Shown: positions 4,187-57,991, counted from the stretch's first letter. The stretch: DNA of 64,000 bases from an uncultured Verrucomicrobiaceae bacterium (GCA_964500675.1 CAZCNY010000004.1:140361-204360), one strand, 5' to 3'. Translations and numbers: made by a program. Notes: generated by a model from the sequence alone, not told the origin.

Positions 4187-4262
4187 TTTGAACAAATAGG
4201 CTTCAACGCGTTAAGTTTTTGGGTTATTCAAGAGAAATTGAAACGAGGATCGATTTATTAAA

Positions 4263-4300
4263 GGCGGATTCAATTCCGATGTGCTACGAGTTGAATCCGC
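4263..4300. terminator. hairpin between the hexR-like gene and the convergent acyltransferase gene
   Basis: A 10-11 bp perfect stem, GGCGGATTCAA (4263-4273) pairing with TTGAATCCGC (4291-4300), with a 17-nt loop and only a weak T-run. It lies between two convergent stop codons. Confidence 0.4.
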
Positions 4301-4304
4301 TGCT

Positions 4305-7790: not shown

Positions 7791-8252
7791 TTACTTGGCG
7801 GGAGCTGCTTCACCGTGCTCGTCACGCATGTGCGCGGGTCCATGATGCGGGCGCAAGCGCTCGCGCATTTTCCACTGCGCATCGAGTGCTTCCTGTTGCT
7901 TCGGCGTCAACACGCCATTGATCTGCGCGTGGGTTTGCTCGTGCTGCTTTTCCATGTCTGCGTGAAACGCTTCGAGCTGCGGTTTGTATTTGTCTTCGAT
8001 GGCCTTGCGCTGCGTGGCGCTGTCTTCGAGAATTTTCTTGACCTTGGCGGTTTGGTCATCGCTCAGCTGCAAGGTTTTTTGCAGGTGCGTTGCCTGCGCC
8101 GCGGGGTTCCACGTTTTGCCGTATGCTTCCGAGCACTGTTGTGGATGACTCGCGGGCATGGTTGCGACGGGGTGAGTGTTGGTCACCTGCGCGTTGGCGG
8201 CGGAGATAGCACCGATCAGGCCGCAAGCTAGCAGAAATTTTTTCATCGCCAT
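7791..8252 (-). CDS. periplasmic Spy/CpxP-family (LTXXQ-motif) stress protein
   Basis: 153 aa with a signal peptide (MAMKKFLLACGLIGAISAANA) and LQLSDDQ / LTPKQQEAL LTXXQ-like motifs. It sits immediately downstream of a BaeSR-like pair. Confidence 0.7.
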   Translation of the reverse strand: MAMKKFLLACGLIGAISAANAQVTNTHPVATMPASHPQQCSEAYGKTWNPAAQATHLQKTLQLSDDQTAKVKKILEDSATQRKAIEDKYKPQLEAFHADMEKQHEQTHAQINGVLTPKQQEALDAQWKMRERLRPHHGPAHMRDEHGEAAPAK

Positions 8253-8422
8253 TTCCTCTTGTGAATGAGTAACTCTTTAAGTTGCTAGCGCGCAGTATTT
8301 AGTGCGGTAGCGACTTAAGTTGTTGTCAGATTAGCGACTCTCTGTGCAGAAACTATGCAAACATTGCGCAGCGATCGCGAAAATGATCGATACGAGCAGT
8401 TAGTGCTTTGCTGCTCGTAAAA

Positions 8423-8457
8423 GTTCAAAGCGGTTCACAATAGTTCGAAGCCGTTCA
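8423..8457. promoter_or_regulatory. four direct GTTCR pentamers with exact 10-bp phasing (candidate OmpR-family response-regulator site)
   Basis: GTTCA at 8423, GTTCA at 8433, GTTCG at 8443 and GTTCA at 8453. The array lies between the response-regulator stop (8476) and the Spy-like gene start (8252). Confidence 0.4.
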
Positions 8458-8475
8458 TAAAAACTCGAACGTGCG

Positions 8476-9189
8476 TTACGAGAGCTCGAAACGATAACCC
8501 GCGCCATAAACCGAGTGAATGAATTCGCGCTCGGGCCAGGTTTCCGCAAGCTTCTTGCGCAGTTTTTTGATATGGCTGTCGATGGTGCGATCGCTGACGA
8601 TGCGATGATCGTTGTACATGCACGACATCAATTGATCGCGCGAGAAAATCCGCCCCGGTTCGCTGGCCAGCCGTTTGAGCAATTGAAACTCCACCAATGT
8701 CAGCGTCACCGTGCATTTTTCCAGGCGCACTTCGAGCCGGTTTTCATCGAGTGCGACATCGGCCGCGGTATTTTCGCTGGCGGCGGCGCGTGCGCGCCGC
8801 AACACGGCTTTGACACGCGATACCACTTCGCGCGGGCTGAAGGGTTTGCAGATGTAATCGTCGGCGCCGAGTTCGAGACCGAGCAGGCGATCGACTTCCT
8901 CGACGCGCGCGGTGACCATCAAAATCGGTACCTGCGAAAATGTGCGAATGTCGCGGCACAGGCTGATGCCGTCGCGTCCCGGCAGCATAAGATCGAGCAA
9001 CACCGCAGCGGGCTGCAAGGTTTTGATCGCATCGATCGCGCGATTGCCGTCGTCGATGCAGTGCGGTTCGAATTTCGATTGGCGCAAATAATCGGCGAGA
9101 AGGCTCGCCAGTTTTGGCTCATCCTCGATGATAAGAATGGTCTGGGATTCACTGCTTACCGTATTGGAAGAATTGGGCATAGTGTTCAC
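8476..9189 (-). CDS. baeR: OmpR-family response regulator, BaeR-like
   Basis: 237 aa. The ILIIEDEPKL..LLDLMLPGRDG..LCRDIR.FS..PI.MVTA.VEE.DRLLGLE.GADDYICKPFSPREVV pattern is close to E. coli BaeR as I recall it. The symbol rests on similarity and context only. Confidence 0.75.
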   Translation of the reverse strand: MNTMPNSSNTVSSESQTILIIEDEPKLASLLADYLRQSKFEPHCIDDGNRAIDAIKTLQPAAVLLDLMLPGRDGISLCRDIRTFSQVPILMVTARVEEVDRLLGLELGADDYICKPFSPREVVSRVKAVLRRARAAASENTAADVALDENRLEVRLEKCTVTLTLVEFQLLKRLASEPGRIFSRDQLMSCMYNDHRIVSDRTIDSHIKKLRKKLAETWPEREFIHSVYGAGYRFELS

Positions 9190-9202
9190 CGATACGGAGT
9201 TT

Positions 9203-10579
9203 TTACCGATATGGAAGAAAGACTCGAATTAACAAACCGCCGAGCGCCGAGGGCACCGCGCTGATTTCACCAGCGTGCGCGGCGACGATGCGCTGGCAGA
9301 TGGCGAGACCGAGACCCGAGCCGCCGGTGGCGCGATTGCGCGAATCGTCGACACGAAATAAATGATCGAATAATTTCGGCAGCGCCGCCGCCGGCACGCC
9401 CGGCGCGCTATCTTGCACCAACAGCTCGACGCCGTTCGACAATGCATTCACATCGACTTGTACGCGACCGCCCGCGGCGGTGTATTTGCGGCTGTTGTCG
9501 AGCAGATTGTCGAGTAATTGCCGCAGCCGATCTTCGTCGCCGTACAGTTCGATTTCTTGCGCGGGAATTTGAACCGCGAGCGTCAGTCCCGCCGTTTCAA
9601 AATTTTTGCGATGAGCAACGCACTGATCGCGCCACAATTCGGCGACATCGCATTCGCTTTTGCGATATTGCAGACCGCCGATATCGGCCGTGGTGAGCGA
9701 ATGCAGATCGTCGACGAGCCGGCTTAAGTGCTGCACTTCCTGATGCAGAGATTGCAAATGCGCGCTGTCGGCTGGGCGCACGCCGTCGAGAATCGCTTCG
9801 AGTTCGCCGCGTAAAATCGCCAACGGCGTACGCAATTCGTGTGAAATATCGGCGAGCCAGCGTTTGCGGCTGTTGTCGTTGGCGGTGAGCGTGAGCGCGA
9901 GTTCGTTGAAATCGCGCGCGAGTTCGCCGAATTCATCGCGGCGTTGCGCCGGTAAGGTGACGGCGTAATTACCCTGCGTCAATTCATGCGTGCCGTGCGC
10001 GAGCTGTCGAATCGGTTTTACCAGATGGCGCGCGAGCGGGAACGCGATAAGCGCGGCGACCGCGAGCAGAGCGGTGCCGATCACGGCCAGTGACGAGCGC
10101 TGCCGCCGCAGAAATTCTTCTTCAAAGCCCGAATTGATTTCGCGCAATTGCGGCACGACGAGCCAGCCAATTTTTTTGTTATGAAGTTCAATTGGGTCGT
10201 GCAACTCGATCGAGATAAGTTTCACCGGTGGCGGTGGTGGATGTCCGGCGATGAGCCGCTGATCGCTATCGAGCAATGCGAGCGGAATCGGCGGGCGCGG
10301 CAGATGCGGCGGCGATATGTGTGAATCGCGCGAATCGAGCGCGCTGAACACGATGCGGTGAAATAAATGCGGGTCGTCGTGCAATGGCTGCCAGGTGCCG
10401 GTTTCCCGATAAAAATCGCTGAGCTCTTCGGCGACTTCATGCGCGCGCTGCACCTGGCGATTGTTGACGTAATCGAGCATGCCGCTCGATACACTCCATT
10501 GAAAAAGCAGCATAACGGCTGTCACCAGCAACAGACTGGAGCCGAGAATCGCGAGAAAAATTTTGGATTGAATGCGCAC
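9203..10579 (-). CDS. baeS: sensor histidine kinase, BaeS-like (TM-periplasmic-TM-HAMP-HisKA-HATPase)
   Basis: 458 aa with H-box SHELRTPLA, N-box LLDNSRKYT and G-boxes DSAPGV/GGSGLGLAI. It lies directly upstream of the BaeR-like gene. Confidence 0.75.
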   Translation of the reverse strand: MRIQSKIFLAILGSSLLLVTAVMLLFQWSVSSGMLDYVNNRQVQRAHEVAEELSDFYRETGTWQPLHDDPHLFHRIVFSALDSRDSHISPPHLPRPPIPLALLDSDQRLIAGHPPPPPVKLISIELHDPIELHNKKIGWLVVPQLREINSGFEEEFLRRQRSSLAVIGTALLAVAALIAFPLARHLVKPIRQLAHGTHELTQGNYAVTLPAQRRDEFGELARDFNELALTLTANDNSRKRWLADISHELRTPLAILRGELEAILDGVRPADSAHLQSLHQEVQHLSRLVDDLHSLTTADIGGLQYRKSECDVAELWRDQCVAHRKNFETAGLTLAVQIPAQEIELYGDEDRLRQLLDNLLDNSRKYTAAGGRVQVDVNALSNGVELLVQDSAPGVPAAALPKLFDHLFRVDDSRNRATGGSGLGLAICQRIVAAHAGEISAVPSALGGLLIRVFLPYR

Positions 10580-10704
10580 GCTGTTCGGATTCGATCATTC
10601 GTTGATCGTTAGCGTATCGCCAAACCAAGCGCGCCGCTATGCGGCGCGCGGGTATTCATGGTTTTTGCACATTCCGTGTCATGTGTCCAATCGGCCGCAG
10701 ACGA

Positions 10705-10986
10705 TCAGCCGTATGTGCACAGATACGCGGTGTCTTGTTTCACTTGCAGCTGGAATTTTACGTTGGCGGCCACTTCAAACGAGGCACCGCGCGCGAAGGT
10801 TTTCCATTCGTTCGCGCCCGGCAATTTAACGGTCAGGACACCGCTGATCACTGTCATCACTTCGCGCTGGCTGGTGCCGAATTCGTATTCGCCCGGTGCC
10901 ATCACGCCGACCGTTGCCGGCAATTGCTCACCTTGAAATGCGATCGATTTAACGTTGCCGGCAAAATATTCGTTCACTTTAAACAC
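10705..10986 (-). CDS. ppnP: pyrimidine/purine nucleoside phosphorylase PpnP (DUF1255)
   Basis: 93 aa. MFKVNEYF.GNVKSI.F....[14 protein letters not shown]...E.M.V..G is characteristic of the family. Confidence 0.88.
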
Positions 10987-11010
10987 GATGAAAACTCCAG
11001 TGGTGGGGGA

Positions 11011-12858
11011 TTATTTTTTTAAGGCCAGGCGTTTGCGCGGTGCAGTCGTGCCATCGGCTGTCATTTTTCGCGCATCGATATCACCGCGCGCTTTGCGCGG
11101 TGCCGATTCGCGTGTTGCCGAATTGCCGTACGAGCGTTTGCGTGGCGCGCTATCGCCGCCACCGGCGAACGGCGCGATATTCATCATGTGACCGCGCAGG
11201 CGCACGCTTTTCAGTTGCTGAAAAATATCCTTCGGCATGCCCTGCGGTAAATCGACCGTGCTGTAATCGTCGAACAATTGAATACGGCCGATGTTGGCGC
11301 TGTTGATACCGGCTTCATTCGCGATCGCGCCGACGATGTCGCTGACGCGAATATCATGCGTGCGCCCGACCGCGACGCGATAGCGATCCATCGGGACATC
11401 GGAACGTTCGCTGCGCTCGCGGCGCGGGCGTTCGGAGCTAACACTGCGGTCGTGGCGCGGTGAGCGCTCACCGCGTTCATTGCGGTCGCCCCGTTCGTTG
11501 CGATCGAATGCCACCGGCTGCGGCGCGGCGGGCAATTTTGCGTTCAAACCTTGTTGCTCGGCGAGCAGAGCAAGCATGCCTGCCGCCAATTCGTCGAGCG
11601 TGAGACCGAGTTCGTTGCGCAATTCCTCGACCGCAGTGCTCCACGAGGCAGCATCGGCGTGGCCGAGTTTTTCCGCCAGCGTCTGACGAAAGCGCGCGTT
11701 GCGGCGCTGTTTGATTTCGTCGTCGCTCGGCAATTCGAGATCTTGCAGCGGCTGGCGTGTGAATTGTTCGAGGCCGCGTACGCCGCGACGATCGCGCGGA
11801 TCGGCCAGCAATACCGCGCGGCCGCTGCGGCCGGCGCGGCCGGTGCGGCCGATGCGGTGCACGTAGGTGTCGGGATCGTGCGCGAGATCGTAGTTGATGA
11901 CGAGGCTGATGCGCTCGACATCGAGGCCGCGCGCGGCGACATCGGTGGCGACGAGAATATCGATTTTGCCCGCCTTCAGCAGCGCGATCGTCTGCTCGCG
12001 CTGCGATTGATTCATATCGCCGTTGATAGCTTGCGCGGCGTAGCCGGCGTTGGAAAGATATTCGGCGATTTCACTCGTGGCTTCGCGGGTGCGCGTGAAA
12101 ATAATCGCGGCGTCGAAATCTTCGGCGGCGAGCAGGCGCGCGACGGCGAGCGATTTATCGCGCTGACGCGCCCACACCACATGCTGCGCAATGCTCGAAA
12201 CCGTGGCGGTCGCGGCGGGAATCACGATGCGCTCGGGTTCGCGCAAATAGCGATCGGCGATATTTTTTATGCGCGAAGGCATCGTCGCGGAAAACAGTGC
12301 GGTCTGCTGCGTGCCACCGGTGTGTTTAAGAATGGCTTCGACGTCGTCGATAAAACCCATGCGCAGCATTTCATCGGCTTCGTCCATCACCACCCAACGC
12401 AGCGCGGACAAGTCGAGGCTTTTGCGATTCAAATGATCGAGCAATCGCCCCGGTGTGCCGACCACGATTTGCACGCCGCGGCGCAATTCCTGCAATTGAT
12501 CGCGCATCGATTGGCCGCCGTACACGGCCAATACTTTGCAGCGGCCGATATTTTCGCTGTAGCGGGTAAACGCTTCCGCCACTTGCATGGCCAATTCGCG
12601 CGTCGGCGCGAGAATCAACGCTTGCGGTTTAGATGTGTTATCGAGTTGCGCGAGAATCGGCAGCGCGAAGGCGGCGGTTTTACCGGTGCCGGTCTGCGCT
12701 TGACCGATCAGATCGCGGCCTGCCAGCAACAGCGGAATCGCCTGCGTCTGGATCGCGGAGGGCTTTTGATAGCCGAGGGAGGTCAAAGTGGAAAGCAAAG
12801 TCTCGGGCAGGCCGAGACCGGTGAAATCGGTCGGTTCGCTCATCGTCTTTATCTGCAT
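11011..12858 (-). CDS. deaD: DEAD-box ATP-dependent RNA helicase, DeaD/CsdA-like
   Basis: 615 aa with the Q-motif, AQTGTGKT, DEAD, SAT and HRIGRTGRAG motifs, a DbpA-type RNA-binding region and an Arg/Ser/Glu-rich tail. Confidence 0.9.
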   Translation of the reverse strand: MQIKTMSEPTDFTGLGLPETLLSTLTSLGYQKPSAIQTQAIPLLLAGRDLIGQAQTGTGKTAAFALPILAQLDNTSKPQALILAPTRELAMQVAEAFTRYSENIGRCKVLAVYGGQSMRDQLQELRRGVQIVVGTPGRLLDHLNRKSLDLSALRWVVMDEADEMLRMGFIDDVEAILKHTGGTQQTALFSATMPSRIKNIADRYLREPERIVIPAATATVSSIAQHVVWARQRDKSLAVARLLAAEDFDAAIIFTRTREATSEIAEYLSNAGYAAQAINGDMNQSQREQTIALLKAGKIDILVATDVAARGLDVERISLVINYDLAHDPDTYVHRIGRTGRAGRSGRAVLLADPRDRRGVRGLEQFTRQPLQDLELPSDDEIKQRRNARFRQTLAEKLGHADAASWSTAVEELRNELGLTLDELAAGMLALLAEQQGLNAKLPAAPQPVAFDRNERGDRNERGERSPRHDRSVSSERPRRERSERSDVPMDRYRVAVGRTHDIRVSDIVGAIANEAGINSANIGRIQLFDDYSTVDLPQGMPKDIFQQLKSVRLRGHMMNIAPFAGGGDSAPRKRSYGNSATRESAPRKARGDIDARKMTADGTTAPRKRLALKK

Positions 12859-47974: not shown

Positions 47975-48445
47975 TTAGTTAGATGTGCTCGGCGCATCGG
48001 CGGGGCACGGAATGGAGCTTTTACTGAATATGCTGCGGTAGATTTTCCAGGTGCCGTTCACGCGCTTGAAAATATTCACGTACTTGCCGCTGTCGACATC
48101 CTCGACGCGGCGTATATCGCGTATCCGGTAATTGCCCTCGTCGTAGGCGATGTCGCCGCTGATCGTACTGGTTTCCGAGTTGATCCAGAATTGCATGCGT
48201 CGCCGCAGCGTTTCTTCCATGTATTGCTTGATAGCGGCTTTGCCTTTCACCGGCGCGCCGAATCCCGGCAACATTTCGCCGTCGTCGGTAAACAGTTCGG
48301 ACGCGGCGGCGGAATCGCCGGCATTGAAAGTGGTGCGCAGTGAGGTGATGACGTCGGGCGGCAGCGTTTCTTCGTGCATGCTACAGCCGGAGATGGCTAG
48401 CAGAATGACAATACAGGCAGACAGCGGGATTTTCGTTGTTTTCAT
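47975..48445 (-). CDS. lipoprotein with SnoaL-like / DUF4440 (NTF2-fold) domain
   Basis: 156 aa with lipobox LLAISGC. F.AGD..A...LFT.DGE.L......V.GK.AI..Y.......... then G.YVNIFKR.NGTWKI is typical of DUF4440. Confidence 0.7.
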   Translation of the reverse strand: MKTTKIPLSACIVILLAISGCSMHEETLPPDVITSLRTTFNAGDSAAASELFTDDGEMLPGFGAPVKGKAAIKQYMEETLRRRMQFWINSETSTISGDIAYDEGNYRIRDIRRVEDVDSGKYVNIFKRVNGTWKIYRSIFSKSSIPCPADAPSTSN

Positions 48446-48708
48446 GCAGAAGTCCTCAGTCCGTAGAAGTTTCGATGCGTTGAGTGCCGCATAACCCAGT
48501 TATTGAAAAGCATAGACCGTTCAACCGCAGGTGTCGGCATCGGCGACAGGCGGAAGCAGCGCCATCGCAAAACTGTCGGAACCCTTTCCATCTCGATCAG
48601 CACTCAACGCGACGCGGGCCAATAAGTAATTGGCTCCAAACACTTTTGTTATTGAGGCCCGGTTATTGCGACGTGTTCGGCACAACATAAAAATTAAGAG
48701 GCTTCGTC

Positions 48709-48948
48709 ATGGCGATCAATCGCGTTGGCAATACCGTAGACGTCTCCATTCCCGCATTTATTTACGAGTTATTACCCCTCCTTTACATAGCCGGCGGTTT
48801 CTTAGCGGCTGCGAAGATTGGCGGCGCATTGGTCAATCTATGCAGCGTCGTGCTGATATTGACGGGCGTGCAAATATTGCGCATGCGCAGCCGCTATCGA
48901 GAATCCATGAAATTCCCGCAACGCAATCCGGTTCGGAGTCGCAGTTAA
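48709..48948 (+). CDS. hypothetical small membrane protein (2 predicted TM helices)
   Basis: 79 aa with two hydrophobic segments (IPAFIYELLPLLYIAGGFLAAA and LVNLCSVVLILTGVQIL) and a basic tail. No family recognised. Confidence 0.4.
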   Translation: MAINRVGNTVDVSIPAFIYELLPLLYIAGGFLAAAKIGGALVNLCSVVLILTGVQILRMRSRYRESMKFPQRNPVRSRS

Positions 48949-49288
48949 CAATAGTCGGATTCAAATCTGAGGTGCATCGCTTCACTCTGTTTCTCGGCTC
49001 CCTTTATTTTTATGAAAATATTTCTGGAAGGAGAGCCTTCATTTTTTCGTGCAGTTCTATTTTTTTCTCAGGTGTCTCATTCACCGATTGCCGATGATTT
49101 TTCCAACCCGTCAAGCAAGGCGATGCCACAACAGTTAATGCTGAAGTTGCCGCTTAAAATAAACCTGCTACAGCATGTCCAGTAGAAAGCGGATACCCAA
49201 CCGATGGTTTAACTTGCGCGTTGCATCCACTCAGCATATAAACCGTCGGGTAATTATTTAATCGACGGAATTCCACGAGGAGCGGGCA

Positions 49289-49804
49289 ATGAGCGATGAA
49301 TCCAGTGCTGAAATACGAGATGCCAGAAAAGATTGGATGACGCAGCATCGCGCGATGTATCTGCGCTCGGGCGGCGCGCAGGGGCATATCATGGACCTCA
49401 CGGCGGTCGGCGCGCATTCGTTCGGGACGCACTGCTTGGTGAAATATGCAGGCCGCAAGAGCGGGAAGATTTTTATCACGCCACTGTGCTATGGCGATAT
49501 CGGTGGCGAAGTGGTGATCGTGGCGTCCAAGGGCGGCGCGAACGAACATCCCGATTGGTATCTCAATATTCGGGAAATGAAAGCGGTCGAATTCCAGATT
49601 GCCACGCAGGCATTTCGCGCTACGTGGCGCGAGCCGGAAGGTGCGGAGCGCGAAAAAGTGTGGAATTTTATGGTGGATTGCTACCCGTTCTATGCCAACT
49701 ATCAGGCGTCCACTCAGCGCCGGATACCTCTCGTAATGATGAAGCCCATTGAAGAGATAAAAGTCTTTACGGAAACCGACGCCACCGGCAGCAGACAGTT
49801 GTAG
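49289..49804 (+). CDS. nitroreductase/deazaflavin-dependent oxidoreductase family protein (DUF385)
   Basis: 171 aa with GG.VVIVASKGGA..HPDWYLN......VE.Q........A.EP.G.ER...W........Y..YQ.....RIP... Confidence 0.75.
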   Translation: MSDESSAEIRDARKDWMTQHRAMYLRSGGAQGHIMDLTAVGAHSFGTHCLVKYAGRKSGKIFITPLCYGDIGGEVVIVASKGGANEHPDWYLNIREMKAVEFQIATQAFRATWREPEGAEREKVWNFMVDCYPFYANYQASTQRRIPLVMMKPIEEIKVFTETDATGSRQL

Positions 49805-49818
49805 CGCCGCAAAAAAAA

Positions 49819-50232
49819 TCAGTCTTGGTAGCGCAGATCGACATGCGTGGACTCGCCGTTTGGCCCCATCGGCGAGTCGTATTCCAACACGCTACAAACC
49901 GGATTGGCGTGCGAGGCGAAAAGATTGTCTTCGTCTTTCATCACGTGAGGCAGGCGCGCTGGATCGCTGATAATTTTCTGTGAATTCTCGAAATCCTCGC
50001 GACTGTTCCACCAGATTTCCATAATGCAGTCATAACCGCAGTCGTGCACCGTGCCCGTGACGGGATTCTTTTCGGGTGTCAGGTAACGCCGCACATAGCG
50101 CACCGCATTGGGTATCGATGGCGAGCGCCCCATCCGCTTCGACAACTGCGAGTGCTGGTTTTCGTAGTAATCCATGAATTTATCCATGCTCATGTCCGGC
50201 CGTTTCTTGAAAAAACAGATTTGCTTGAACAT
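49819..50232 (-). CDS. EthD domain-containing protein
   Basis: 137 aa with KKRPDMS...F..YYE..H........ ....YVRRY...... and E.WW.S.EDFE, typical of EthD-like proteins. Confidence 0.65.
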   Translation of the reverse strand: MFKQICFFKKRPDMSMDKFMDYYENQHSQLSKRMGRSPSIPNAVRYVRRYLTPEKNPVTGTVHDCGYDCIMEIWWNSREDFENSQKIISDPARLPHVMKDEDNLFASHANPVCSVLEYDSPMGPNGESTHVDLRYQD

Positions 50233-50347
50233 TGAGTTTTCTCCCGCTGGTTATTTTCGATTGTGCAAGGATCGCATCGAAATGCCAACACGAAGAGTTT
50301 AAGGGCCGGCATGAAGATATTTAAGGCGTTGGAGCCGGGGATATCGG

Positions 50348-50393
50348 ATGGTGCCCAGGGGCAGAATCGAACTGCCGACACAAGGATTTTCAG
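50348..50393 (-). repeat. att repeat: displaced 3' 46 nt of tRNA-Phe (left junction)
   Basis: ATGGTGCCCAGGGGCAGAATCGAACTGCCGACACAAGGATTTTCAG is identical to 57915-57960. Identity stops at both flanks. Confidence 0.95.
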
Positions 50394-51313
50394 GAATCGC
50401 ACCGTGCAGCCGCCAAAAGCCCTTCAATGTGCCGAGCAGGCACCTTCAAATGATCGCCGGACAAATGTGCGTAACGCAGCACCATCTGAATCGTAGACCA
50501 GCTTCCCAACTCCATTAATTCCCGCATCCCCGTACCGTTCTGAGCATGCCATGACGCCCATGTATGGCGTAGATCGTGCCAGCGGAAGTCAGTTATTCCG
50601 GCCCGCTCTTTAGCCAGCTTCCACGCCCTTGTGCTAGTCCGAGACACCGGACGGCCGTTATAAACAAAAACCCATTCGCGATGCTCGCCACGTTGCGATC
50701 GCAGCACGGCAATGGCGTCAGCATTAAGCGGCACCGGGAAAGCTTTACGATTCTTCGACTGCGCAGCGTGTATCCATGCCATGCCACGACCGAGATCGAT
50801 CTGGTCCCAACGAAGCCCCGTTACGTTGCTTTGACGTAGCCCTGTTGCTAGAGCGAACAGCGCCATAGCGCGCAGGTGCGACGGAAGTTCGTACAGCAAG
50901 CGCAGAGCATCTTCAGGGGGCAACCACCTCACACGCGCCGGAGGTTCCTTGAGCATGCAAATACGGGGTACACGCTGAATCCATTCCCAATCGTCGCGAG
51001 CCATGCGTAGAACGGCCCGAATCAGCGCAAGGTAACGGTTTACAGTGGACGGGGATGATTCGCGAAGCTTAGCTTCAGTGACACACTCAACGACATCACG
51101 TGTAATTTCGTCAAGGAAGTACTCGCCGAGATATTTTGCCAACCATGCAAGCTTGCCGCGATCGCTTTTAATGTCAGCCTTGTGCGATTTTTCCCGCATC
51201 CATCGAGCGGCAGCTTGCAACCATGTACGCCGAGTATCCACAACTAAAAATCCAAACAACAGGAAAAAATTTAAAAAGCGATCTAGATTTGAATGGCAAT
51301 TGAGCTTAGCCAA
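50390..51313 (-). CDS. tyrosine recombinase / phage integrase
   Basis: About 280-307 aa with ATGLRQSN (Arg), HDLRHTWAS (HxxR) and LRYAH (Tyr). The true start may be GTG 51241 because the first 24 codons look non-native. The stop lies 4 nt inside the att repeat. Confidence 0.88.
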   Translation of the reverse strand: MAKLNCHSNLDRFLNFFLLFGFLVVDTRRTWLQAAARWMREKSHKADIKSDRGKLAWLAKYLGEYFLDEITRDVVECVTEAKLRESSPSTVNRYLALIRAVLRMARDDWEWIQRVPRICMLKEPPARVRWLPPEDALRLLYELPSHLRAMALFALATGLRQSNVTGLRWDQIDLGRGMAWIHAAQSKNRKAFPVPLNADAIAVLRSQRGEHREWVFVYNGRPVSRTSTRAWKLAKERAGITDFRWHDLRHTWASWHAQNGTGMRELMELGSWSTIQMVLRYAHLSGDHLKVPARHIEGLLAAARCDS

Positions 51314-51325
51314 GGATAGAACACA

Positions 51326-51691
51326 ATGCTTTCAAAAATCGGAATAATTCTTTTCGCCGCAATAAGCACAACAGCCATCGCTGAAATTTATCAGTGGACC
51401 GACGAAAAAGGAATTACACACTACAGCGACGCCATACCAAAAACTGGGAAGACAAAAGACGGAATACAATTGCGCGATAACAACCTACCAAACCTAACGA
51501 CAGTACAGCACAGCGAAGCGCAAGCGCGTCAAGAGAAAGAACAAACCAGCCCGACTTTTATCGAAATAAGCGACCACACCGCAGGCGTTAATTGCAATTC
51601 AACAAATCTAAATTCAATTGACCGAAACAATGTGTTAGACGCATGGCAAGATCGCGAGTGGCGAGACTGCCACGGCATGAAAGAACAATAA
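51326..51691 (+). CDS. DUF4124-domain secreted protein (prophage cargo)
   Basis: 121 aa with a signal peptide, then IYQWTDEKGITHYSD (the DUF4124 signature). It is AT-rich and in the opposite orientation to the phage structural genes. Confidence 0.7.
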   Translation: MLSKIGIILFAAISTTAIAEIYQWTDEKGITHYSDAIPKTGKTKDGIQLRDNNLPNLTTVQHSEAQARQEKEQTSPTFIEISDHTAGVNCNSTNLNSIDRNNVLDAWQDREWRDCHGMKEQ

Positions 51692-51718
51692 AAAGACTTT
51701 TCGCTCGCCGCTAGGCAA

Positions 51719-51743
51719 GGGTTGCAGTCAGGACTGCAACCCA
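51719..51743. terminator. 11-bp perfect hairpin between the convergent DUF4124 and zot-like genes
   Basis: GGGTTGCAGTC-AGG-GACTGCAACCC. There is no strong T-run, so it is a likely bidirectional stop or structural element. Confidence 0.5.
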
Positions 51744-51829
51744 GCCAATAAGCTTATTTCTTATCGAGTGTCGATCAAGCCCGCCTAACGGAAACAGAAA
51801 AGACGTTTCCGATAGATCGAGCTTGACGA

Positions 51830-52948
51830 TTAGAGTGAGTTTGAATCTTTCGGAGCTTGAAAAGCTTGAGCAATTACACCCACAGATTTTTCGCCTTCGC
51901 ACATCGCATAGAAAACTTCATTGTAGCCAGAGATTTTAACCATGCACTCAGCGACGGGCTGAACCTTGTACCCCGCCTGAATTAAATCCTTTTGATCAAA
52001 GCGAGCATAGTTATCGCCATCATCGACACGAAAAACATATTCAACACCCTTGCCATAATCCGACGCAGCCGTTATCACAATTTTTCGACCATGTAGCACA
52101 CTGCTAGACTGGGCCGCGCGAATATTTGCTAACTCCTGAGCTGCTTTAAAATTTTCGGGCACAGCACGCGACGTTTGCAAAGAAGCCGAAGCGCCGCGAC
52201 CTTTATCAATATCCTTGTGTAGGTTGTGATAGGTGCGCCAACCGAGAAAAACAGCAAGAATCGGTAATATCACCATCGCCGCCAACATCGATTTAATCTT
52301 GCCGCCCTTCAAAATATTCGCACGATCGTCAACACGTTTTTCGTTACCGACATCGCCCGCTTTGCTTTGGCTAGCCGATTTATAGAATTTAAAATTCTCA
52401 GACTTATACGTCTCAAACATTTCACGCAAACGTTGTGACGGCGGCGGATTCTGACCCGTTACAGCGCCTTGATAAATATCGACCCGAAAACGATTGTCTT
52501 GCCCTACGGCATCGAGCTTCGTGCAACGGAACGTCTTATCGACCAACTGACGAACGAATGCGCTGAGCTGCGCAAGATCTTGCGTCACTAAAATAATTTG
52601 TGTTGTGGTTCCCGCTTCGTTGACCTTGTGGCCGTGCATGGCGAGAAATTCTTTATGCACGGAATTGACGTTATTCGCTTTCAGCCCAGCGGGCCAGAAA
52701 CGCCAGCATTCATCGAGCACAAGCATTGCGCCAGCGGGCAGTACGTCATCAAACCATTTAGGGTTGTCGATTATATCTTGCGAATCGAAAACGACAGGAA
52801 CCGCGCCTAATTCAGATAACCAGACATCGGCATGCAGCGGGATATTCGTATACACGTCGCGACCTTGTTTGATCGCTTCCACCATAATCTGAGTTACCGA
52901 GTAACTTTTCCCCGAGCGCGGTAGACCCGTATAGGCGCTTATCGACAT
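51830..52948 (-). CDS. Zot-like / pI-family phage assembly ATPase
   Basis: 372 aa with an N-terminal Walker A GLPRSGKS, Walker B LVLDECW and a central TM segment (MLAAMVILPILAVFLGW), as in Inovirus pI/Zot. Confidence 0.85.
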   Translation of the reverse strand: MSISAYTGLPRSGKSYSVTQIMVEAIKQGRDVYTNIPLHADVWLSELGAVPVVFDSQDIIDNPKWFDDVLPAGAMLVLDECWRFWPAGLKANNVNSVHKEFLAMHGHKVNEAGTTTQIILVTQDLAQLSAFVRQLVDKTFRCTKLDAVGQDNRFRVDIYQGAVTGQNPPPSQRLREMFETYKSENFKFYKSASQSKAGDVGNEKRVDDRANILKGGKIKSMLAAMVILPILAVFLGWRTYHNLHKDIDKGRGASASLQTSRAVPENFKAAQELANIRAAQSSSVLHGRKIVITAASDYGKGVEYVFRVDDGDNYARFDQKDLIQAGYKVQPVAECMVKISGYNEVFYAMCEGEKSVGVIAQAFQAPKDSNSL

Positions 52949-53040
52949 TTTCTAACGCACCAACGAACACCACGCTGCAAAAGCCGAACCGTCGAAAAAA
53001 CACCGATAAGAAAAACCAGCGCGAAAAAAATTCCAATCAT
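52942..53040 (-). CDS. possible 32-aa hydrophobic phage ORF (not in the ORF track)
   Basis: Own translation gives MIGIFFALVFLIGVFSTVRLLQRGVRWCVRKCR. It fills the gap between the pVI-like and pI-like genes and overlaps the pI start by 7 nt. Confidence 0.3.
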
Positions 53041-53046
53041 GATAAA

Positions 53047-53349
53047 TCACCCTATCAACGGAATCCGCCGTATCAGAAAGCGAACGCCATACGCAGAGCC
53101 CAACACCGCAGCCCCAAAACCAAGGTCGAACGGACCGACAAAATAGCCGACGCTGGGCGGGATATTCGATAAAATATCGGCACCAGATTGCGCCCAGTCA
53201 GGCACAGGAATCGCATTAAACACCGCTACAATCGCGTTAAAAATTTGCTCGGAAATCCAAATAAAAAAGCCTTTGATCTCATCCTGGACCCACGTCAACC
53301 AGCAGCCAATATCGGTATAACCACAACTCGCATTAGCCATGTTAAGCAC
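53047..53349 (-). CDS. pVI-like minor coat protein (DUF2523)
   Basis: 100 aa and hydrophobic, ending FLIRRIPLIG, which is typical of DUF2523. It sits between the pIII-like and pI-like genes. Confidence 0.7.
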   Translation of the reverse strand: MLNMANASCGYTDIGCWLTWVQDEIKGFFIWISEQIFNAIVAVFNAIPVPDWAQSGADILSNIPPSVGYFVGPFDLGFGAAVLGSAYGVRFLIRRIPLIG

Positions 53350-54619
53350 TCAGTAAAATTAAAATACCCATCGCGACATACACGACGTGCATGACCGCAG
53401 CGAGAGTCGGCGCAATGCTGTCGTAAAGCGCACACTGGGAATCCATCACAATCGATTGATTAAACAGCGAGAGCGTGGCCGTTGGACATGCGCCAACGTT
53501 CACGGCCCCGCCAATACCGGAACCGCCGGCAAGAGAGCCCAACGGAGTACCCTTAACACCGGTTTCAAAAGTATTGAAAGCGTCACCAAATGATGCGGCA
53601 GTGCCTTGCGTATGCGTTAAACCACTTTGCGTACCCGCAATACAATCCGCATAGTTAACCGCTGTAGGATCACACTGACCAGCACCCGAACCCGATCCAC
53701 TACCAGAACCAGTTCCAGTGCCGCCACCATTGCCAACACCAGTGCCACCCGACGATGCGGAAGTTCCGCTAGTACCGCCCGTAGTATTCGTATTCGTCAC
53801 AACCGACTGAGAGCCATTGGCATTCGTAGTGGTAACGACCGTCGTTGTCGTCACCGTTCCGTTATCATTCACAGCAGTCGTCGTTGCCGTAGAGGACGAA
53901 CCACCTGTTGCAGAAGACGATGAAGACGACGAACTCGAACCACCACCGCTAGCACTCGCCGAATTACCGCCCGCAGCGCCACCCGTACAACTTTGCGCCG
54001 TACCATTGGAATCGAAATAACACGTTTTAGAACCATCGGGCTTGTCGATACAATTGTTACCACCGCCTAAATCAATAATATCGACAATATGAAACATACA
54101 ACCGCCAACGCATTGCTCAGTAGACCCAAGACTTAAAGAATCACCCGCAGCAACACCAAACCCTAAACTCTGTTGATCTGTATTACACGACTGAACACAA
54201 TTACCCGTTTGATCGCGCGCTTGACCAATTGGACATTTCGCGACACATTGACCACCAACAAGATCATATAAAACTAAATCACAACCACAACTCTGAGTTG
54301 AATTATTCCAAATCGAACCAGTATTAGGACATTTAGCGGGAGTTAAATTAAAAGTTGCCGGAGTACCACAACCTGTACCTTGACCGGTAACATTTCCAGA
54401 CGGACAAAGCCAAACACTCGCAGAATTAGCCGTTATTGTTTGAAAAGCGACTTGATTACCAATCCCGCCGTTAATCGAATTCCAATACGCCTTAGCACCA
54501 TCAATCGCACCCTGAGCCGAAGAAAAACAAAAATTGCCGTTAGTGGTTTGGCACCACATAGGGTCAGCACTCGCAGATAAAGTCGCGAGCAATAAAATTG
54601 CGCAAAGTAAAAGACGCAT
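53342..54619 (-). CDS. pIII-like adsorption/minor coat protein
   Basis: The track ORF extends to 54652. I trimmed it to ATG 54619 (MRLLLCAILLLATLSASA is a signal peptide). A Cys-rich N-terminal domain is followed by long Gly/Ser/Thr linkers (GGSSSSSSSSSATGGSS..., GTGSGSGSGSGAG) and a C-terminal membrane anchor. Confidence 0.75.
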   Translation of the reverse strand: MRLLLCAILLLATLSASADPMWCQTTNGNFCFSSAQGAIDGAKAYWNSINGGIGNQVAFQTITANSASVWLCPSGNVTGQGTGCGTPATFNLTPAKCPNTGSIWNNSTQSCGCDLVLYDLVGGQCVAKCPIGQARDQTGNCVQSCNTDQQSLGFGVAAGDSLSLGSTEQCVGGCMFHIVDIIDLGGGNNCIDKPDGSKTCYFDSNGTAQSCTGGAAGGNSASASGGGSSSSSSSSSATGGSSSTATTTAVNDNGTVTTTTVVTTTNANGSQSVVTNTNTTGGTSGTSASSGGTGVGNGGGTGTGSGSGSGSGAGQCDPTAVNYADCIAGTQSGLTHTQGTAASFGDAFNTFETGVKGTPLGSLAGGSGIGGAVNVGACPTATLSLFNQSIVMDSQCALYDSIAPTLAAVMHVVYVAMGILILLSA

Positions 54620-54696
54620 CACCAACGCCGCCCTACAAAAACAATAAAACACGCAGCGCCGAGTACAAAAAATGTGTAGTAATAAAGATCAGCCAT
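54619..54696 (-). CDS. possible 25-aa hydrophobic phage ORF (pVII/pIX-like position, not in the ORF track)
   Basis: Own translation gives MADLYYYTFFVLGAACFIVFVGRRW. It has an ATGA overlap with the pIII-like start. Confidence 0.35.
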   Translation of the reverse strand: MADLYYYTFFVLGAACFIVFVGRRW

Positions 54697-54747
54697 AGCT
54701 CACCACGAATTGGCTGGTAGCGAACCACCAGCCTTTTCGATCAACGA

Positions 54748-54960
54748 TTAACGACGAATAAAACCGAGAACAAGACGCGCACCTTTCATCGCTACATAAA
54801 CCGCAGCGAGCAAAGCAGCGACAGCGAGCACCGCAGTAATTACCGTCGAAAAATCCACCGCAGTCGTTAACGTCGTAAAATCAGGACCAGCAGCGTGAGC
54901 ACCAAGGACAAGACCGAACGACGTAGCAACCAGTGCCAATTTTGTTTTCAGTTGTTTCAT
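54748..54960 (-). CDS. major coat protein (pVIII-like)
   Basis: 70 aa with a signal peptide (…GLVLGAHA), an acidic N-terminus of the mature part (AGPDFTTLTTAVDF), a hydrophobic helix and a basic C-terminus (KGARLVLGFIRR). Confidence 0.8.
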   Translation of the reverse strand: MKQLKTKLALVATSFGLVLGAHAAGPDFTTLTTAVDFSTVITAVLAVAALLAAVYVAMKGARLVLGFIRR

Positions 54961-55031
54961 AAATCACCTCAAAGTAAAAGACGCTCCACTTTTTAATATC
55001 CTCGCCGGGAGCGTATCGGCGCAGGATTCAA

Positions 55032-55373
55032 TTAACCTTTACGAATCAACTTCAAAATAATTGCAGCGCCAATGCAAACAACCCAAACCGGCATGCAAAA
55101 GAAAAAACCAGCGCCGAATGCTTCGATAATTGTTGTCGGGTCAAGCGTCGAAGGGTCGAATGGCACAGCAAGAGAGTTCATTGGTTGCCACGAACCATCA
55201 TTGCTCGAATCGGTGCCAATACAAACGGGCTTACCTTGTGCAACACCACCACTCATCGTCGTGGTAACAGCAACAGACGAACCCAAAGAATCGTCACATG
55301 TAAAAACCCACTGCGTAGCCAGAGCAAAATTGCAACTCAGCAGGAGAAGAACCGACAACAAAAAACCTTTCAT
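55032..55373 (-). CDS. hypothetical phage membrane protein
   Basis: 113 aa with a signal peptide and a C-terminal TM segment. It has an ATGA overlap with the upstream replication gene. Confidence 0.5.
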   Translation of the reverse strand: MKGFLLSVLLLLSCNFALATQWVFTCDDSLGSSVAVTTTMSGGVAQGKPVCIGTDSSNDGSWQPMNSLAVPFDPSTLDPTTIIEAFGAGFFFCMPVWVVCIGAAIILKLIRKG

Positions 55374-56644
55374 GCCGCAACTCCATCAAGTATTAATTGC
55401 TGCATTCGCCGTTGCACGAATTCAGTCAGTGCAAGGAACAACGAGCTACCACCTCCGAAGTGCGGCACATTGAAATAATCGGCAAGCTCGGATTCAATAC
55501 CCATCGCGAGAAAAGACTTCACGACGAAATCACAAGTGAAGCGACGGCGCGCAGCGACGCGCAGAAAATTGCCAATAAAAAAAGCTACATTTCTGCGCGT
55601 TGTGCCGGATGCGGTTTTATAGGATCGCTGATATAGAAATGCCGTTTCGTAAGGATTAAAACGCACATCTTCATGCAGCATTTGCCAAAGCGGATCAACG
55701 TAACGGTAAGAGTGTTGCAAGCGAAATGAATCGAGACAGTAACGCCAGAGCGCGTTCAAATGCGGTACCAAGCGCTTAAAGGTCGGATGATCGCGGTACT
55801 CTTCCATCCCTTCAGTGCCGCGCGCGAATTGCGCTACGACGGAATGATGAAGCCTTGCTTCAATACGTTTTACATCGTCTCCGGCTTTAAATTCCGCCTC
55901 ATCGACATTATCAACTGATAACGTTTGCGACCAAACCGAAAACCAGAAGTCCGATTTGTCTTTTGCAGCGATTTCAACAGTTTTATTGTAAACCGAGAAT
56001 TGTACCGCCGAAGGTTGGCCATACGTGAACGTTTGACGATCACCGTACACGCAGGAAATTTCATTGAGACCGTTATAGGATACTTGCGCAATGCCATCGA
56101 ATTTAAACTCCCGTTTTGCTTTGCAAACAAAGCGCTTTTCAAAATCGTGAGGGACTTGGAAATTTTTAAGATCAACCGCGAGATGTACCGCGCAACCGGA
56201 TGGCGCGAGGTCAGACGCGAAAAATTTCGCGATAGCCTGAATTTTATCGGTCAGTTCATCGGGATTATATTTTGCGATTGTCTGCGGAGACACTTCGATC
56301 TTGATATGCGGCCCCAACTCACTGGCATCTTTGTAGAAGCTTTTAACGAGGACGACGTAGCCGAGATCGCCGTTTTTGAGAATGAATTGGTAGCCTGACT
56401 GTTTAGCGGAGCGAGACAGCATCCAATCGATACCGCCGATATTAAGCACATCGCCACCAATGGAATTAACCAATAAATCATGTACGTCCTCCTTAAGAAT
56501 GCCGTTATAAAGCTGTTTAACGGTATCGACACCGCAGTGCAGCATGCGCACATCGGATAAATCGATACTTTCAACCGCTCGACCATTTTTCATTGAGAAC
56601 ACCTGACCCGATCTATCCCAAAACTTGTTTTCGTACGTAGCCAT
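55370..56644 (-). CDS. putative phage replication initiation protein (gene II / RstA-like position)
   Basis: At 424 aa it is the largest phage ORF and sits upstream of the coat module. The assignment rests on size and synteny. I did not recognise a definitive motif. Confidence 0.55.
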   Translation of the reverse strand: MATYENKFWDRSGQVFSMKNGRAVESIDLSDVRMLHCGVDTVKQLYNGILKEDVHDLLVNSIGGDVLNIGGIDWMLSRSAKQSGYQFILKNGDLGYVVLVKSFYKDASELGPHIKIEVSPQTIAKYNPDELTDKIQAIAKFFASDLAPSGCAVHLAVDLKNFQVPHDFEKRFVCKAKREFKFDGIAQVSYNGLNEISCVYGDRQTFTYGQPSAVQFSVYNKTVEIAAKDKSDFWFSVWSQTLSVDNVDEAEFKAGDDVKRIEARLHHSVVAQFARGTEGMEEYRDHPTFKRLVPHLNALWRYCLDSFRLQHSYRYVDPLWQMLHEDVRFNPYETAFLYQRSYKTASGTTRRNVAFFIGNFLRVAARRRFTCDFVVKSFLAMGIESELADYFNVPHFGGGSSLFLALTEFVQRRMQQLILDGVAA

Positions 56645-56758
56645 CGCGAACCCTTTTATTAAAAACGTTGAATCGTTTTATCGTTTCGGGGCTTTGGTGC
56701 CCTCTTATTATTTACGTGTTACAAGAACGTAAAGGCGCGATGCGCGCCTTCGCTCCGC

Positions 56759-56965
56759 TCAGAGCGCGCATGCGCTGCTGTTCTCGACCACGGAACTCAC
56801 CAACGGCCAAAGCTCTTGAGTGATAAGCGCATTAGCACGGTTAAATTGATTCCAATCGCCCGCTACGTAGCTCCGAGCCAGCGTTTCATTGCGCATGACA
56901 AAGGCCTGCATCATGCGCACATACACATCGGAAGGAAGTACGAGCGTGACGCTGGATTCACTCAT
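56759..56965 (-). CDS. hypothetical phage protein
   Basis: 68 aa. It overlaps the upstream ORF by 4 nt. No family recognised. Confidence 0.4.
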   Translation of the reverse strand: MSESSVTLVLPSDVYVRMMQAFVMRNETLARSYVAGDWNQFNRANALITQELWPLVSSVVENSSACAL

Positions 56966-57249
56966 GACGCTTTTGCCGCACGCACAGGAGAGGCTTTAAC
57001 GCAGTGTTGCCCCATCTTGCCGCCACCCGCTTTGCGAAATTCCAAATCGACGTTGCAATCGAGCGGGTAACCATCGCGTGGCAGACCGTTAAAAACGTCC
57101 TGATCACAATTGACTTTCATCACTTCGAGACCCTTAGAACTTGCGCTAGCAAGGTCGGCAGGCTGGGCAATGAAGATTGACGAATAGACTTTGCCATCGA
57201 TGTTCACCGACGACACACCTAACACTTGCGTTTGCACTGTTGCTTTCAT
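56962..57249 (-). CDS. hypothetical phage protein, possibly the ssDNA-binding protein (gene V-like)
   Basis: 95 aa, predicted beta-rich and of gV-like size. The assignment rests on position only. Confidence 0.35.
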   Translation of the reverse strand: MKATVQTQVLGVSSVNIDGKVYSSIFIAQPADLASASSKGLEVMKVNCDQDVFNGLPRDGYPLDCNVDLEFRKAGGGKMGQHCVKASPVRAAKAS

Positions 57250-57538
57250 GATTTATTTCCTTTGGAAGAGCGGCCTTTGTTGGGAGCCGTTGACCCATTG
57301 CAAAAAACCCCTACACCGCTAACCGGGTTCGCGGTTATTTTTGCGGGAGGGGAAACCTTGGAGTGAGCCGGCATAGTTGACTGCTTTAGTCGGTTATGCC
57401 GGCTCAACGCTTGTTTGAAGTACCGACCGAAGTACAAATCGGGATGGGATAGCTCGACCACCTCGATAAGGGGGAGCTGAGGGCGCATAGCTAAGGCGCA
57501 TTTTGGGCAGGTACAGGGTTCTGGGCGCATCGTGCGGC

Positions 57539-57589
57539 ATCAAGTCTGTTTTGATATTAATGCTAAGCTAATATCAAGTTTGTCTTGAT
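57539..57589. promoter_or_regulatory. two copies of a 17-bp imperfect palindrome (candidate repressor operators) in the divergent phage control region
   Basis: ATCAAGTCTGTTTTGAT (57539-57555) and ATCAAGTTTGTCTTGAT (57573-57589). Each has ATCAA/TTGAT arms and the centres are 34 bp apart. Confidence 0.6.
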
Positions 57590-57647
57590 GTCAAGGGCTG
57601 GCTAATATAAAGGCGCACTTTATGCACTCGCTCAAAGGAGCAAGCAC

Positions 57648-57980
57648 ATGAAAAGTATTGAATGGATCGACAAACTGATCGAAGAAAAACAGCTACCCAG
57701 TGACCGACAAGCAGCATTATTGCTAGGCATGACAGCAGCGAGCATAAGCACGCATCGCAGAGGACATTGCATCACGCTAGACGACAAATTCGCGTACAAA
57801 CTAGAAGAACTTCTAAATCTGCCACATGGAACAATCGTCGCAGATCAACACGCAGAACGAGCACAAGACCCTAACATTTCGGCTATGTGGCGAGGAATTG
57901 CTAACGTTGCGGGAATGGTGCCCAGGGGCAGAATCGAACTGCCGACACAAGGATTTTCAGTCCTTTGCTCTACCGACTGA
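57648..57980 (+). CDS. phage repressor-like HTH protein; its 3' end runs through attR into tRNA-Phe
   Basis: 110 aa with an HTH-like segment (SDRQAALLLGMTAASISTHRRG). It is divergent from the phage late and replication genes. Codons from about 90 onward are encoded by the att/tRNA sequence. Confidence 0.5.
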   Translation: MKSIEWIDKLIEEKQLPSDRQAALLLGMTAASISTHRRGHCITLDDKFAYKLEELLNLPHGTIVADQHAERAQDPNISAMWRGIANVAGMVPRGRIELPTQGFSVLCSTD

Positions 57981-57991
57981 GCTACCTGGGC
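57916..57991 (-). tRNA. tRNA-Phe (anticodon GAA)
   Basis: The reverse complement is GCCCAGGTAGCTCAGTCGGTAGAGCAAAGGACTGAAAATCCTTGTGTCGGCAGTTCGATTCTGCCCCTGGGCACCA. It folds as a cloverleaf with anticodon loop CTGAAAA and an encoded CCA, and is very close to E. coli tRNA-Phe. Confidence 0.95.

Follow-up and report, generated by a model that had tools for sequence, protein, structure and literature searches.

An apparently intact temperate filamentous phage in the tRNA-Phe(GAA) gene of an uncultured marine Spongiibacteraceae bacterium

The DNA analysed here is a stretch of 64,000 nucleotides (GCA_964500675.1, CAZCNY010000004.1:140361-204360), and this whole stretch is called the window hereafter. 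At positions 50348 to 57991 it carries a tRNA-Phe gene, a partial copy of the 3' part of that gene and, between the two, a compact set of phage genes. An initial annotation had taken this region for an inovirus prophage that looked complete and had inserted itself into tRNA-Phe with a tyrosine recombinase of its own, and this reading is supported by the hallmark protein families, the fold of the replication protein (Rep), an empty site in a genome of the same genus (G011) and the phage attachment site (attP) of a circular relative (L066). The attachment (att) sites, genes and DNA signals of the element are listed below (aa, amino acids; ORF, open reading frame; TM, transmembrane; G010, another genome of the genus, which carries a related prophage).

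50348-50393: attL, the displaced 46-bp copy of tRNA-Phe nucleotides 32-76 plus one base; contains the integrase stop codon (50390-50392)
50390-51313, minus strand: tyrosine integrase (PF00589, 5.6e-31; phrog_1, 4e-62)
51326-51691, plus strand: reverse-oriented accessory gene for a secreted DUF4124 protein of 121 aa (PF13511, 9.7e-10)
51830-52948, minus strand: pI/Zot-type morphogenesis ATPase, 372 aa (PF05707, 4.6e-24; phrog_197, 3.8e-64)
52939-53040, minus strand: hydrophobic ORF of 33 aa with a good Shine-Dalgarno sequence, not conserved in relatives
53047-53349, minus strand: pVI-like minor coat protein, 100 aa (phrog_974, 1.3e-19; 36% identical to its homologue in G010)
53342-54652, minus strand: pIII-like adsorption protein, whose C-terminal part matches phrog_11232 and phrog_7187
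54619-54696, minus strand: hydrophobic ORF of 25 aa with a Shine-Dalgarno sequence; its stop overlaps the pIII ATG
54748-54960, minus strand: major coat protein precursor, 70 aa (phrog_2186, 1.2e-19)
55032-55373, minus strand: signal-peptide/TM protein of 113 aa, whose C-terminal part is conserved in the G010 prophage
55370-56644, minus strand: Rep, the rolling-circle initiator, 424 aa, of Rep_trans fold (phrog_1159, 1e-120)
56759-56965, minus strand: orf68, a conserved gene of 68 aa (56-72% in four relatives)
56962-57249, minus strand: orf95, an OB-fold protein of 95 aa (phrog_22642)
57246-57530, minus strand: orf94, 94 aa, the first gene of the phage operon (57-66% in the relatives L066-L069)
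57262-57352, minus strand: structured DNA element consisting of two hairpins, one of them nested, and a T-run (nucleotide conservation in eight phages, six covarying pairs)
57538-57590: paired 22-nt inverted repeats that overlap a TTGACA box and lie between the divergent genes
57648-57980, plus strand: helix-turn-helix (HTH) repressor (phrog_4441 and phrog_638, about 1e-14; homologues at 35-74%)
57915-57960: attR, the 46-bp core within the intact tRNA gene (repeat search and junction reading)
57916-57991, minus strand: intact tRNA-Phe(GAA), the attB target
57914/core/50394: predicted attP, ...AACGTTGCGGGA-core-GAATCGCACCGT...
50347/core/57961: predicted attB, ...CGGGGATATCGG-core-TCCTTTGCTCTA...

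From the right junction the genes follow each other in the order repressor (plus strand), orf94, orf95, orf68, Rep, 113-aa protein, coat, 25-aa ORF, pIII-like, pVI-like, 33-aa ORF, Zot/pI, DUF4124 gene (plus strand) and integrase, so that the minus strand carries every gene except these two; ORF analysis together with Pfam and PHROG matches thus gives the same order as the initial annotation. The set between the att sites occupies 7,567 bp, within the range of small inovirus genomes (about 5-15 kb), and includes eleven co-oriented minus-strand genes. Most genes possess Shine-Dalgarno sequences and coupled stops and starts. The guanine + cytosine content is 45-52% across most of the element as against 55-63% in the right-hand flank, and the host genome contains a single copy of the element.

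The boundaries of the element are given by a direct repeat. A repeat search found the 46 nucleotides 50348-50393 and 57915-57960 to be 100% identical, whereas the best match to this 46-mer in 20 mononucleotide shuffles of the whole window was only 25-28 of 46, so the identity of 46/46 is not due to chance. ARAGORN places a lone tRNA-Phe(GAA) at 57916-57991 on the minus strand, and reading of the junctions shows that the repeat begins at tRNA nucleotide 32, where the anticodon loop starts, and extends to the CCA end (nucleotide 76) with one additional base. The full tRNA gene stands at the right junction (attR) and the partial, displaced copy at the left (attL) beside the integrase, exactly as had been annotated. 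The borders of the repeat are sharp (50347 g and 57914 a; 50394 g and 57961 t), and the integrase stop codon in attL corresponds to U33-G34-A35 of the tRNA anticodon loop. The block of identity therefore runs from the anticodon loop to the tRNA 3' end and the tRNA is restored on integration, as in the anticodon-loop class of tRNA-gene att sites reportedly defined by Williams in 2002, in which attP and attB share precisely such a block. In addition, a third, degenerate copy of the core is present at 50258-50303, 45 bp to the left of attL and in the same orientation, with 29/46 matches (22/28 in a local alignment to the tRNA 3' part). It may be a fossil of an older integration, but with shuffles reaching 25-28 the score of 29/46 is hardly above chance, and no such claim is made.

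The genes enclosed by these repeats are those of a filamentous phage. A pI-like ATPase, short structural proteins with a single TM domain and tRNA att repeats beside an integrase, which make up the working definition of Roux et al. (2019), are all found in the window, and the same study reported 582 prophages of this kind in genomes, with an integrase adjoining canonical att repeats in a tRNA (PMC6813254). The ATPase scores 85 bits against PF05707 (cut-off 20.3) and carries a Walker A motif (GLPRSGKS) and a C-terminal TM segment; it is 45% identical to the Zot protein of the G010 prophage, and to that of any cultured phage it is no more than 37% identical, and this over the N-terminal domain alone. 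The major coat protein has a signal peptide followed by a mature part of about 47 aa whose N-terminus is acidic, whose core is hydrophobic and whose C-terminus is basic, and these features and its phrog_2186 match place it among the short (30-90 aa) single-TM structural proteins of inoviruses, while its match to PF25631 (1.2e-4, 22 bits) lies below the Pfam cut-off of 27. The pIII-like protein (436 aa) is rich in Cys in its N-terminal part, has linkers rich in Ser, Gly and Thr and carries a membrane anchor at the C-terminus, and its C-terminal 124 aa are 30% identical to pIII of the G010 prophage; its probable start is the ATG at 54619, which gives a signal peptide. For the pVI-like protein the initial annotation had proposed the label DUF2523, which has to be withdrawn, because no Pfam family, DUF2523 (PF10734) included, is matched even at E<=10 and the DUF2523 protein in the same position of a related contig (L022) gives a non-significant BLASTP E value of 6.1. 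The 33-aa ORF between this gene and Zot is a candidate minor virion or assembly protein.

Rep is 35-37% identical, over 82-88% of the protein, to ORF430/PA0727 of Pf1 (35%) and to annotated replication initiators of many Pf phages, Pf4-like and PfAC phages among them. Its AlphaFold (AF2) model, built from 39 homologues, has a predicted local distance difference test (pLDDT) score of 84, and the top Foldseek matches of the model are RepDE and RepSTK1 (4cwc, 2.4e-6; 4cwe; 4cij, 3.3e-5) with a probability of 1.0. Moreover, Rep keeps 32 of the 32 columns which are invariant across the 39 homologues. The AF2 model of orf95 (pLDDT 83) is a five-stranded barrel, for which all top matches in the Protein Data Bank (PDB) are SSB or PriB (E 3e-3 to 4e-2, template modelling score 0.5-0.65), and the model thus makes orf95 a candidate single-stranded DNA (ssDNA)-binding, gene V-like protein. 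Searches of PDB sequences with orf95 and the Rep profile returned nothing useful, whereas the fold comparison gave matches for both the rolling-circle initiator and the ssDNA-binding protein. No ORF of the element matches a secretin (pIV), as the initial annotation had noted, and five PF00263 genes are present elsewhere in the host genome.

The integrase ORF is 307 aa long from a TTG, and a GTG at 51241 would give 283 aa; the latter is likely to be the true start, because it is aligned with the ATG of the G010 homologue. The protein is composed of a SAM-like N domain and a catalytic domain, without an arm-binding domain. Its residues R160, H246, R249 and Y281 align with a Pf integrase and W272 occupies the H/W position of the pattern R...HxxR...(H/W)...Y; the R, HxxR and Y are also invariant with respect to the G010 homologue. 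At the nucleotide level the integrase gene matches phage integrase genes such as that of Ralstonia phage RSA1, and a search of 50,697 phage records with the whole element matched only a short piece of this gene and short tRNA-like pieces. Integrases about 40% identical are found at the ends of IMG/VR viral contigs of 40-50 kb, which, judged by size, are probably tailed phages.

Relatives of the element show the same site empty, occupied and in circular form. The tRNA-Phe gene adjoins yggX-mutY in every genome of the genus with a readable flank. G011 has a tRNA-Phe with one att copy and no phage genes, that is, an unoccupied site, and its next conserved flank corresponds to 48024-48340 of the window. 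In G010 the site is occupied by a 7.16-kb inovirus prophage (L007, 3414-10623) with the same 46-bp repeat boundaries, and in G012 a repressor homologue reads into tRNA-Phe at the contig end. The G010 prophage resembles the window element in its integrase (76%), Zot (45%), pVI (36%), C-terminal part of the coat (55%) and repressor (58%), but it has an unrelated replication protein (351 aa), no homologues of orf94, orf95 and orf68, and another accessory gene beside the integrase. The circular relative L066 lends the reading its strongest support. It is a contig of a Joint Genome Institute (JGI) metagenome (3300020047, Ga0206650_1006486) of 7,432 bp, and its terminal overlap of 121 bp indicates a circle of 7,311 bp. 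L066 has the gene order of the window element, an integrase 76% identical, orf94 (66%), orf95 (80%), orf68 (72%) and Rep (57%), and an attP that covers the same 46-bp tRNA-Phe span (nucleotide 32 to CCA plus T) and is flanked by the integrase stop on one side and a repressor of 146 aa on the other. In contrast, its coat, pIII, pVI and Zot give no tblastn match to those of the window, its attP differs at 4/45 positions and agrees with tRNA-Phe from other species in the genus, and it lacks the DUF4124 gene. Since the circular L066 carries this architecture, elements of the window's type exist as circles with the predicted attP.

The repressor, orf94, orf95 and Rep of the window match L020-L023 and L066-L069 at 31-80%, several of which lack an integrase, and orf68 matches L066-L069 only (56-72%). 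The coat, the 113-aa protein, the pIII C-terminus, pVI and Zot, on the other hand, match only the G010 prophage (30-55%). As judged from these matches, the element is a mosaic whose replication and regulation module is closest to L066-L069 and whose structural module is closest to the G010 prophage, with an integrase equally close to both. Rep homologues occur in uncultured metagenome contigs (at most 73%), in Gilvimarinus and Pseudoteredinibacter (45-47%) and in Pseudomonas and Stutzerimonas (about 37%). A search for related loci with Rep gave no match in the genome contig collection and no close one in IMG/VR.

The region 50348-57960 is read here, with a probability of about 0.85, as a temperate filamentous phage (Tubulavirales; broadly speaking, an inovirus) that has inserted into the single-copy tRNA-Phe(GAA) gene and measures about 7,567 bp when circular. 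Its identification as an integrase-type inovirus prophage is hardly in doubt and its genetic completeness is likely; the odds that it is active at present are roughly even or slightly better. The protein lengths agree with those of homologues: 372 aa against 366-393 for Zot, 436 against 429-528 for pIII, 100 against 99-116 for the protein in the pVI position, 70 against 70-79 for the coat and 424 against 403-425 for Rep. Because all genes look intact, the prophage is probably functional. The attP of the phage held the 46-bp tRNA copy, and its recombination by the phage's own short tyrosine recombinase (about 283 aa) left the intact tRNA at attR and the partial copy at attL. In the life cycle proposed, the crossover would fall within the anticodon loop, because the identity begins exactly at nucleotide 32. 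In the lysogen, the HTH repressor would silence the leftward operon from the paired palindromes at 57538-57590, which are candidate operators. Induction would lead to excision, after which Rep would nick the structured element at 57262-57352 and start rolling-circle synthesis, orf95 would coat the ssDNA, and pI with one of the five host secretins would extrude virions without lysis. The structured element, which lies upstream of orf95 and within the 3' part of orf94, is a good candidate for an origin or a packaging signal.

Several observations weigh against such a working phage. No excisionase was recognised among the three small ORFs in family searches, the integrase start is weak (GTG or TTG) with no obvious ribosome-binding site, the matches of orf95 to SSB folds are modest (E about 1e-2), and origin, operators and secretin use are assigned by inference. 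Furthermore, the exact attP and attB junctions occur in none of the contigs of JGI metagenomes or IMG/VR, the window's own contig is the sole member of the 100% Rep cluster, and the host genus is represented mainly by metagenome bins, so that the host may be uncultured. The lack of a recognisable excisionase, also in comparison with that of Pf, the weak integrase start and the lack of independent circular or empty-site contigs for the exact phage in the searched collections would suit a cryptic prophage, structurally intact but fixed, which neither excises nor forms virions, for example for want of a directionality factor or through hidden regulatory or missense defects; the perfection of the 46-bp repeat says little here, since it may last long by chance. 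This alternative has to be taken seriously but is unlikely in view of the full length of all ORFs, the retention of catalytic and invariant residues, a gene complement equal to that of the circular L066 and a base composition that has not been ameliorated. In addition, an integrase of the same family is found at the same site in two other elements with different modules, which points to recent and repeated mobility.

Two further explanations are far less probable. The element would be a non-autonomous integrative element or satellite with inovirus-derived genes if it required a helper filamentous phage, and it could be said for this idea that small hydrophobic proteins of the pVII/pIX type are only tentatively recognised and that the element has no secretin gene. 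However, the absence of a secretin gene is normal in Pf-, CTX- and many other inoviruses, Rep, an ssDNA-binding protein, coat, pIII, pVI and pI are all encoded by the element itself, and the genome contains no second Zot gene and therefore no helper; a satellite is thus very improbable. Least probable of all is an artefact of assembly or binning, in which the 46-bp tRNA sequence common to both led to the joining of a free phage genome with a contig of the host. Such a repeat can in principle cause a wrong join, and the genus is known mostly from metagenome bins, but both junctions lie on one 283-kb contig, both flanks have homologues in congeners, and the same integrated architecture occurs independently in G010 and G012. 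A temperate inovirus integrated in tRNA-Phe remains the preferred reading.

The layout had initially been likened to that of Pf/Cf/RSM-type phages, among which, to our knowledge, only Pf uses a tyrosine integrase at tRNA genes. The comparison is a loose one. Like the Pf prophages of Pseudomonas aeruginosa (Primolicivirus and relatives), the window element is a temperate inovirus with its own tyrosine recombinase acting at the 3' part of a tRNA gene, a divergent repressor, no secretin gene and a Rep of the same family (35% to Pf1 ORF430/PA0727). Pf prophages integrate by type-specific tyrosine integrases into tRNA-Gly or tRNA-Met or into tRNA-Sec or tmRNA, the integrase type being correlated with the site; Pf4 is found at tRNA-Gly and Pf6 at tRNA-Met, with a 46-bp tRNA fragment as attP in Pf6 (PMC7549136). 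The window element, however, is targeted to tRNA-Phe in a host of the Spongiibacteraceae, and its Rep gene precedes the structural genes, whereas in PfAC19 the order is Zot (8199-9473), Rep (9703-10995) and integrase (10995-11978). It has no HTH_17 excisionase of the XisF type in first place opposite the repressor, its coat gives no BLASTP alignment to PfAC19 CoaB, its pVI-like protein gives only two matches of about 15 aa to Pf (E 0.004 and 0.017), and its integrase is 30% identical over the catalytic domain only. Membership of the Pf lineage was therefore rejected on gene order, coat, excisionase and integrase type, the Rep family alone being shared.

The repressor is peculiar in that its gene extends into the att site. 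The conserved domain comprises residues 1 to about 90, and the ORF continues through attR into the tRNA gene; it encodes 110 aa in the integrated form and 145 aa are predicted on excision, when 57960 is joined to 50394. On the circle, the genes of the repressor (145-148 aa) and the integrase converge with an overlap of about 130 nt, an arrangement common to the window phage, the G010 prophage and L066 (in the last, integrase 3495-4340 and repressor 4212-4652). Integration exchanges the 41-residue tail behind the core for a 6-residue tail antisense to the tRNA and removes the overlap with the integrase. By analogy with sib retroregulation in lambda, it might be imagined that the att core inside the repressor 3' end senses the integration state through repressor stability or integrase expression, but this is quite doubtful, for the conserved domain ends before the core and the tails vary widely among relatives. 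In most relatives (for example L020, L023, L069, L008 and L064) the HTH domain (about 90 aa) precedes a hydrophobic, TM-like segment such as AAAILVLAFCGL, which suggests that these repressors are membrane-anchored. The segment is absent in the window, G010 and L066 phages, where the att core fills the tail.

As for the small genes, orf94 and orf68 are taken as real genes because they are conserved at 56-72% in four related phages, although neither of them matches a known family. The alternative that orf94 is a short peptide followed by chance read-through of conserved DNA was overturned by the protein identity of 57-66% over the whole ORF in four relatives. Orf94 occupies the position of XisF in Pf, but no alignment to the XisF-type (HTH_17) excisionase of PfAC19 was obtained and no Pfam, PHROG or NCBIfam family matched. 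Homologues of the DUF4124 protein (28-67% identity) are encoded directly after Zot in L020 (13960-14301) and L022 (8028-8189), both of which lack an integrase, and since the gene takes the same place there, it is a recurrent accessory gene of the clade rather than one-off cargo.

Other observations concern the neighbourhood and the genus. About 2 kb (48340-50347), holding a 171-aa gene and a 137-aa gene, separate attL from the flank conserved in G011 and are not found next to tRNA-Phe in G011 or G010. The stretch beside tRNA-Phe is variable in the genus and is an integration hotspot; at the same tRNA, G008 has a weak integrase match and G001 a remnant of an integrase C-terminus. Of 13 genomes of the genus, 4 contain Zot genes. 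G008 also carries another inovirus prophage, which is not at tRNA-Phe; its repressor (L008, G008:C54, about 6824-7096) is 64% identical to that of the window, and its Zot gene is at C54:111467-111922.

The host is an uncultured marine gammaproteobacterium of the Spongiibacteraceae. The public title of the G010 contig (CAZWBA010000003.1) reads "uncultured Verrucomicrobiaceae bacterium", which is probably a taxonomic mislabel, because proteins of G011 carry a Spongiibacteraceae label and the gene content is gammaproteobacterial (mutY-yggX-tRNA-Phe and Cellvibrionales relatives of Rep).

The window contains a temperate inovirus with clear boundaries, apparently intact, from a marine lineage of uncultured gammaproteobacteria. 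As an instance of a well-known type of element it is tidy but unexceptional, and it leaves the known biology of inoviruses unchanged. None of its hallmark proteins reaches 40% identity to that of a cultured phage. The exact sequences of attL and attR and the predicted attP are now on hand for screens of junction reads. Moreover, tRNA-Phe joins the documented tRNA targets of integrase-type filamentous phages, and the window element, L066 and the two other occupied sites of the genus form a natural example of module shuffling, in which one tRNA-Phe-specific integrase/attP cassette is combined with different replication and structural modules.

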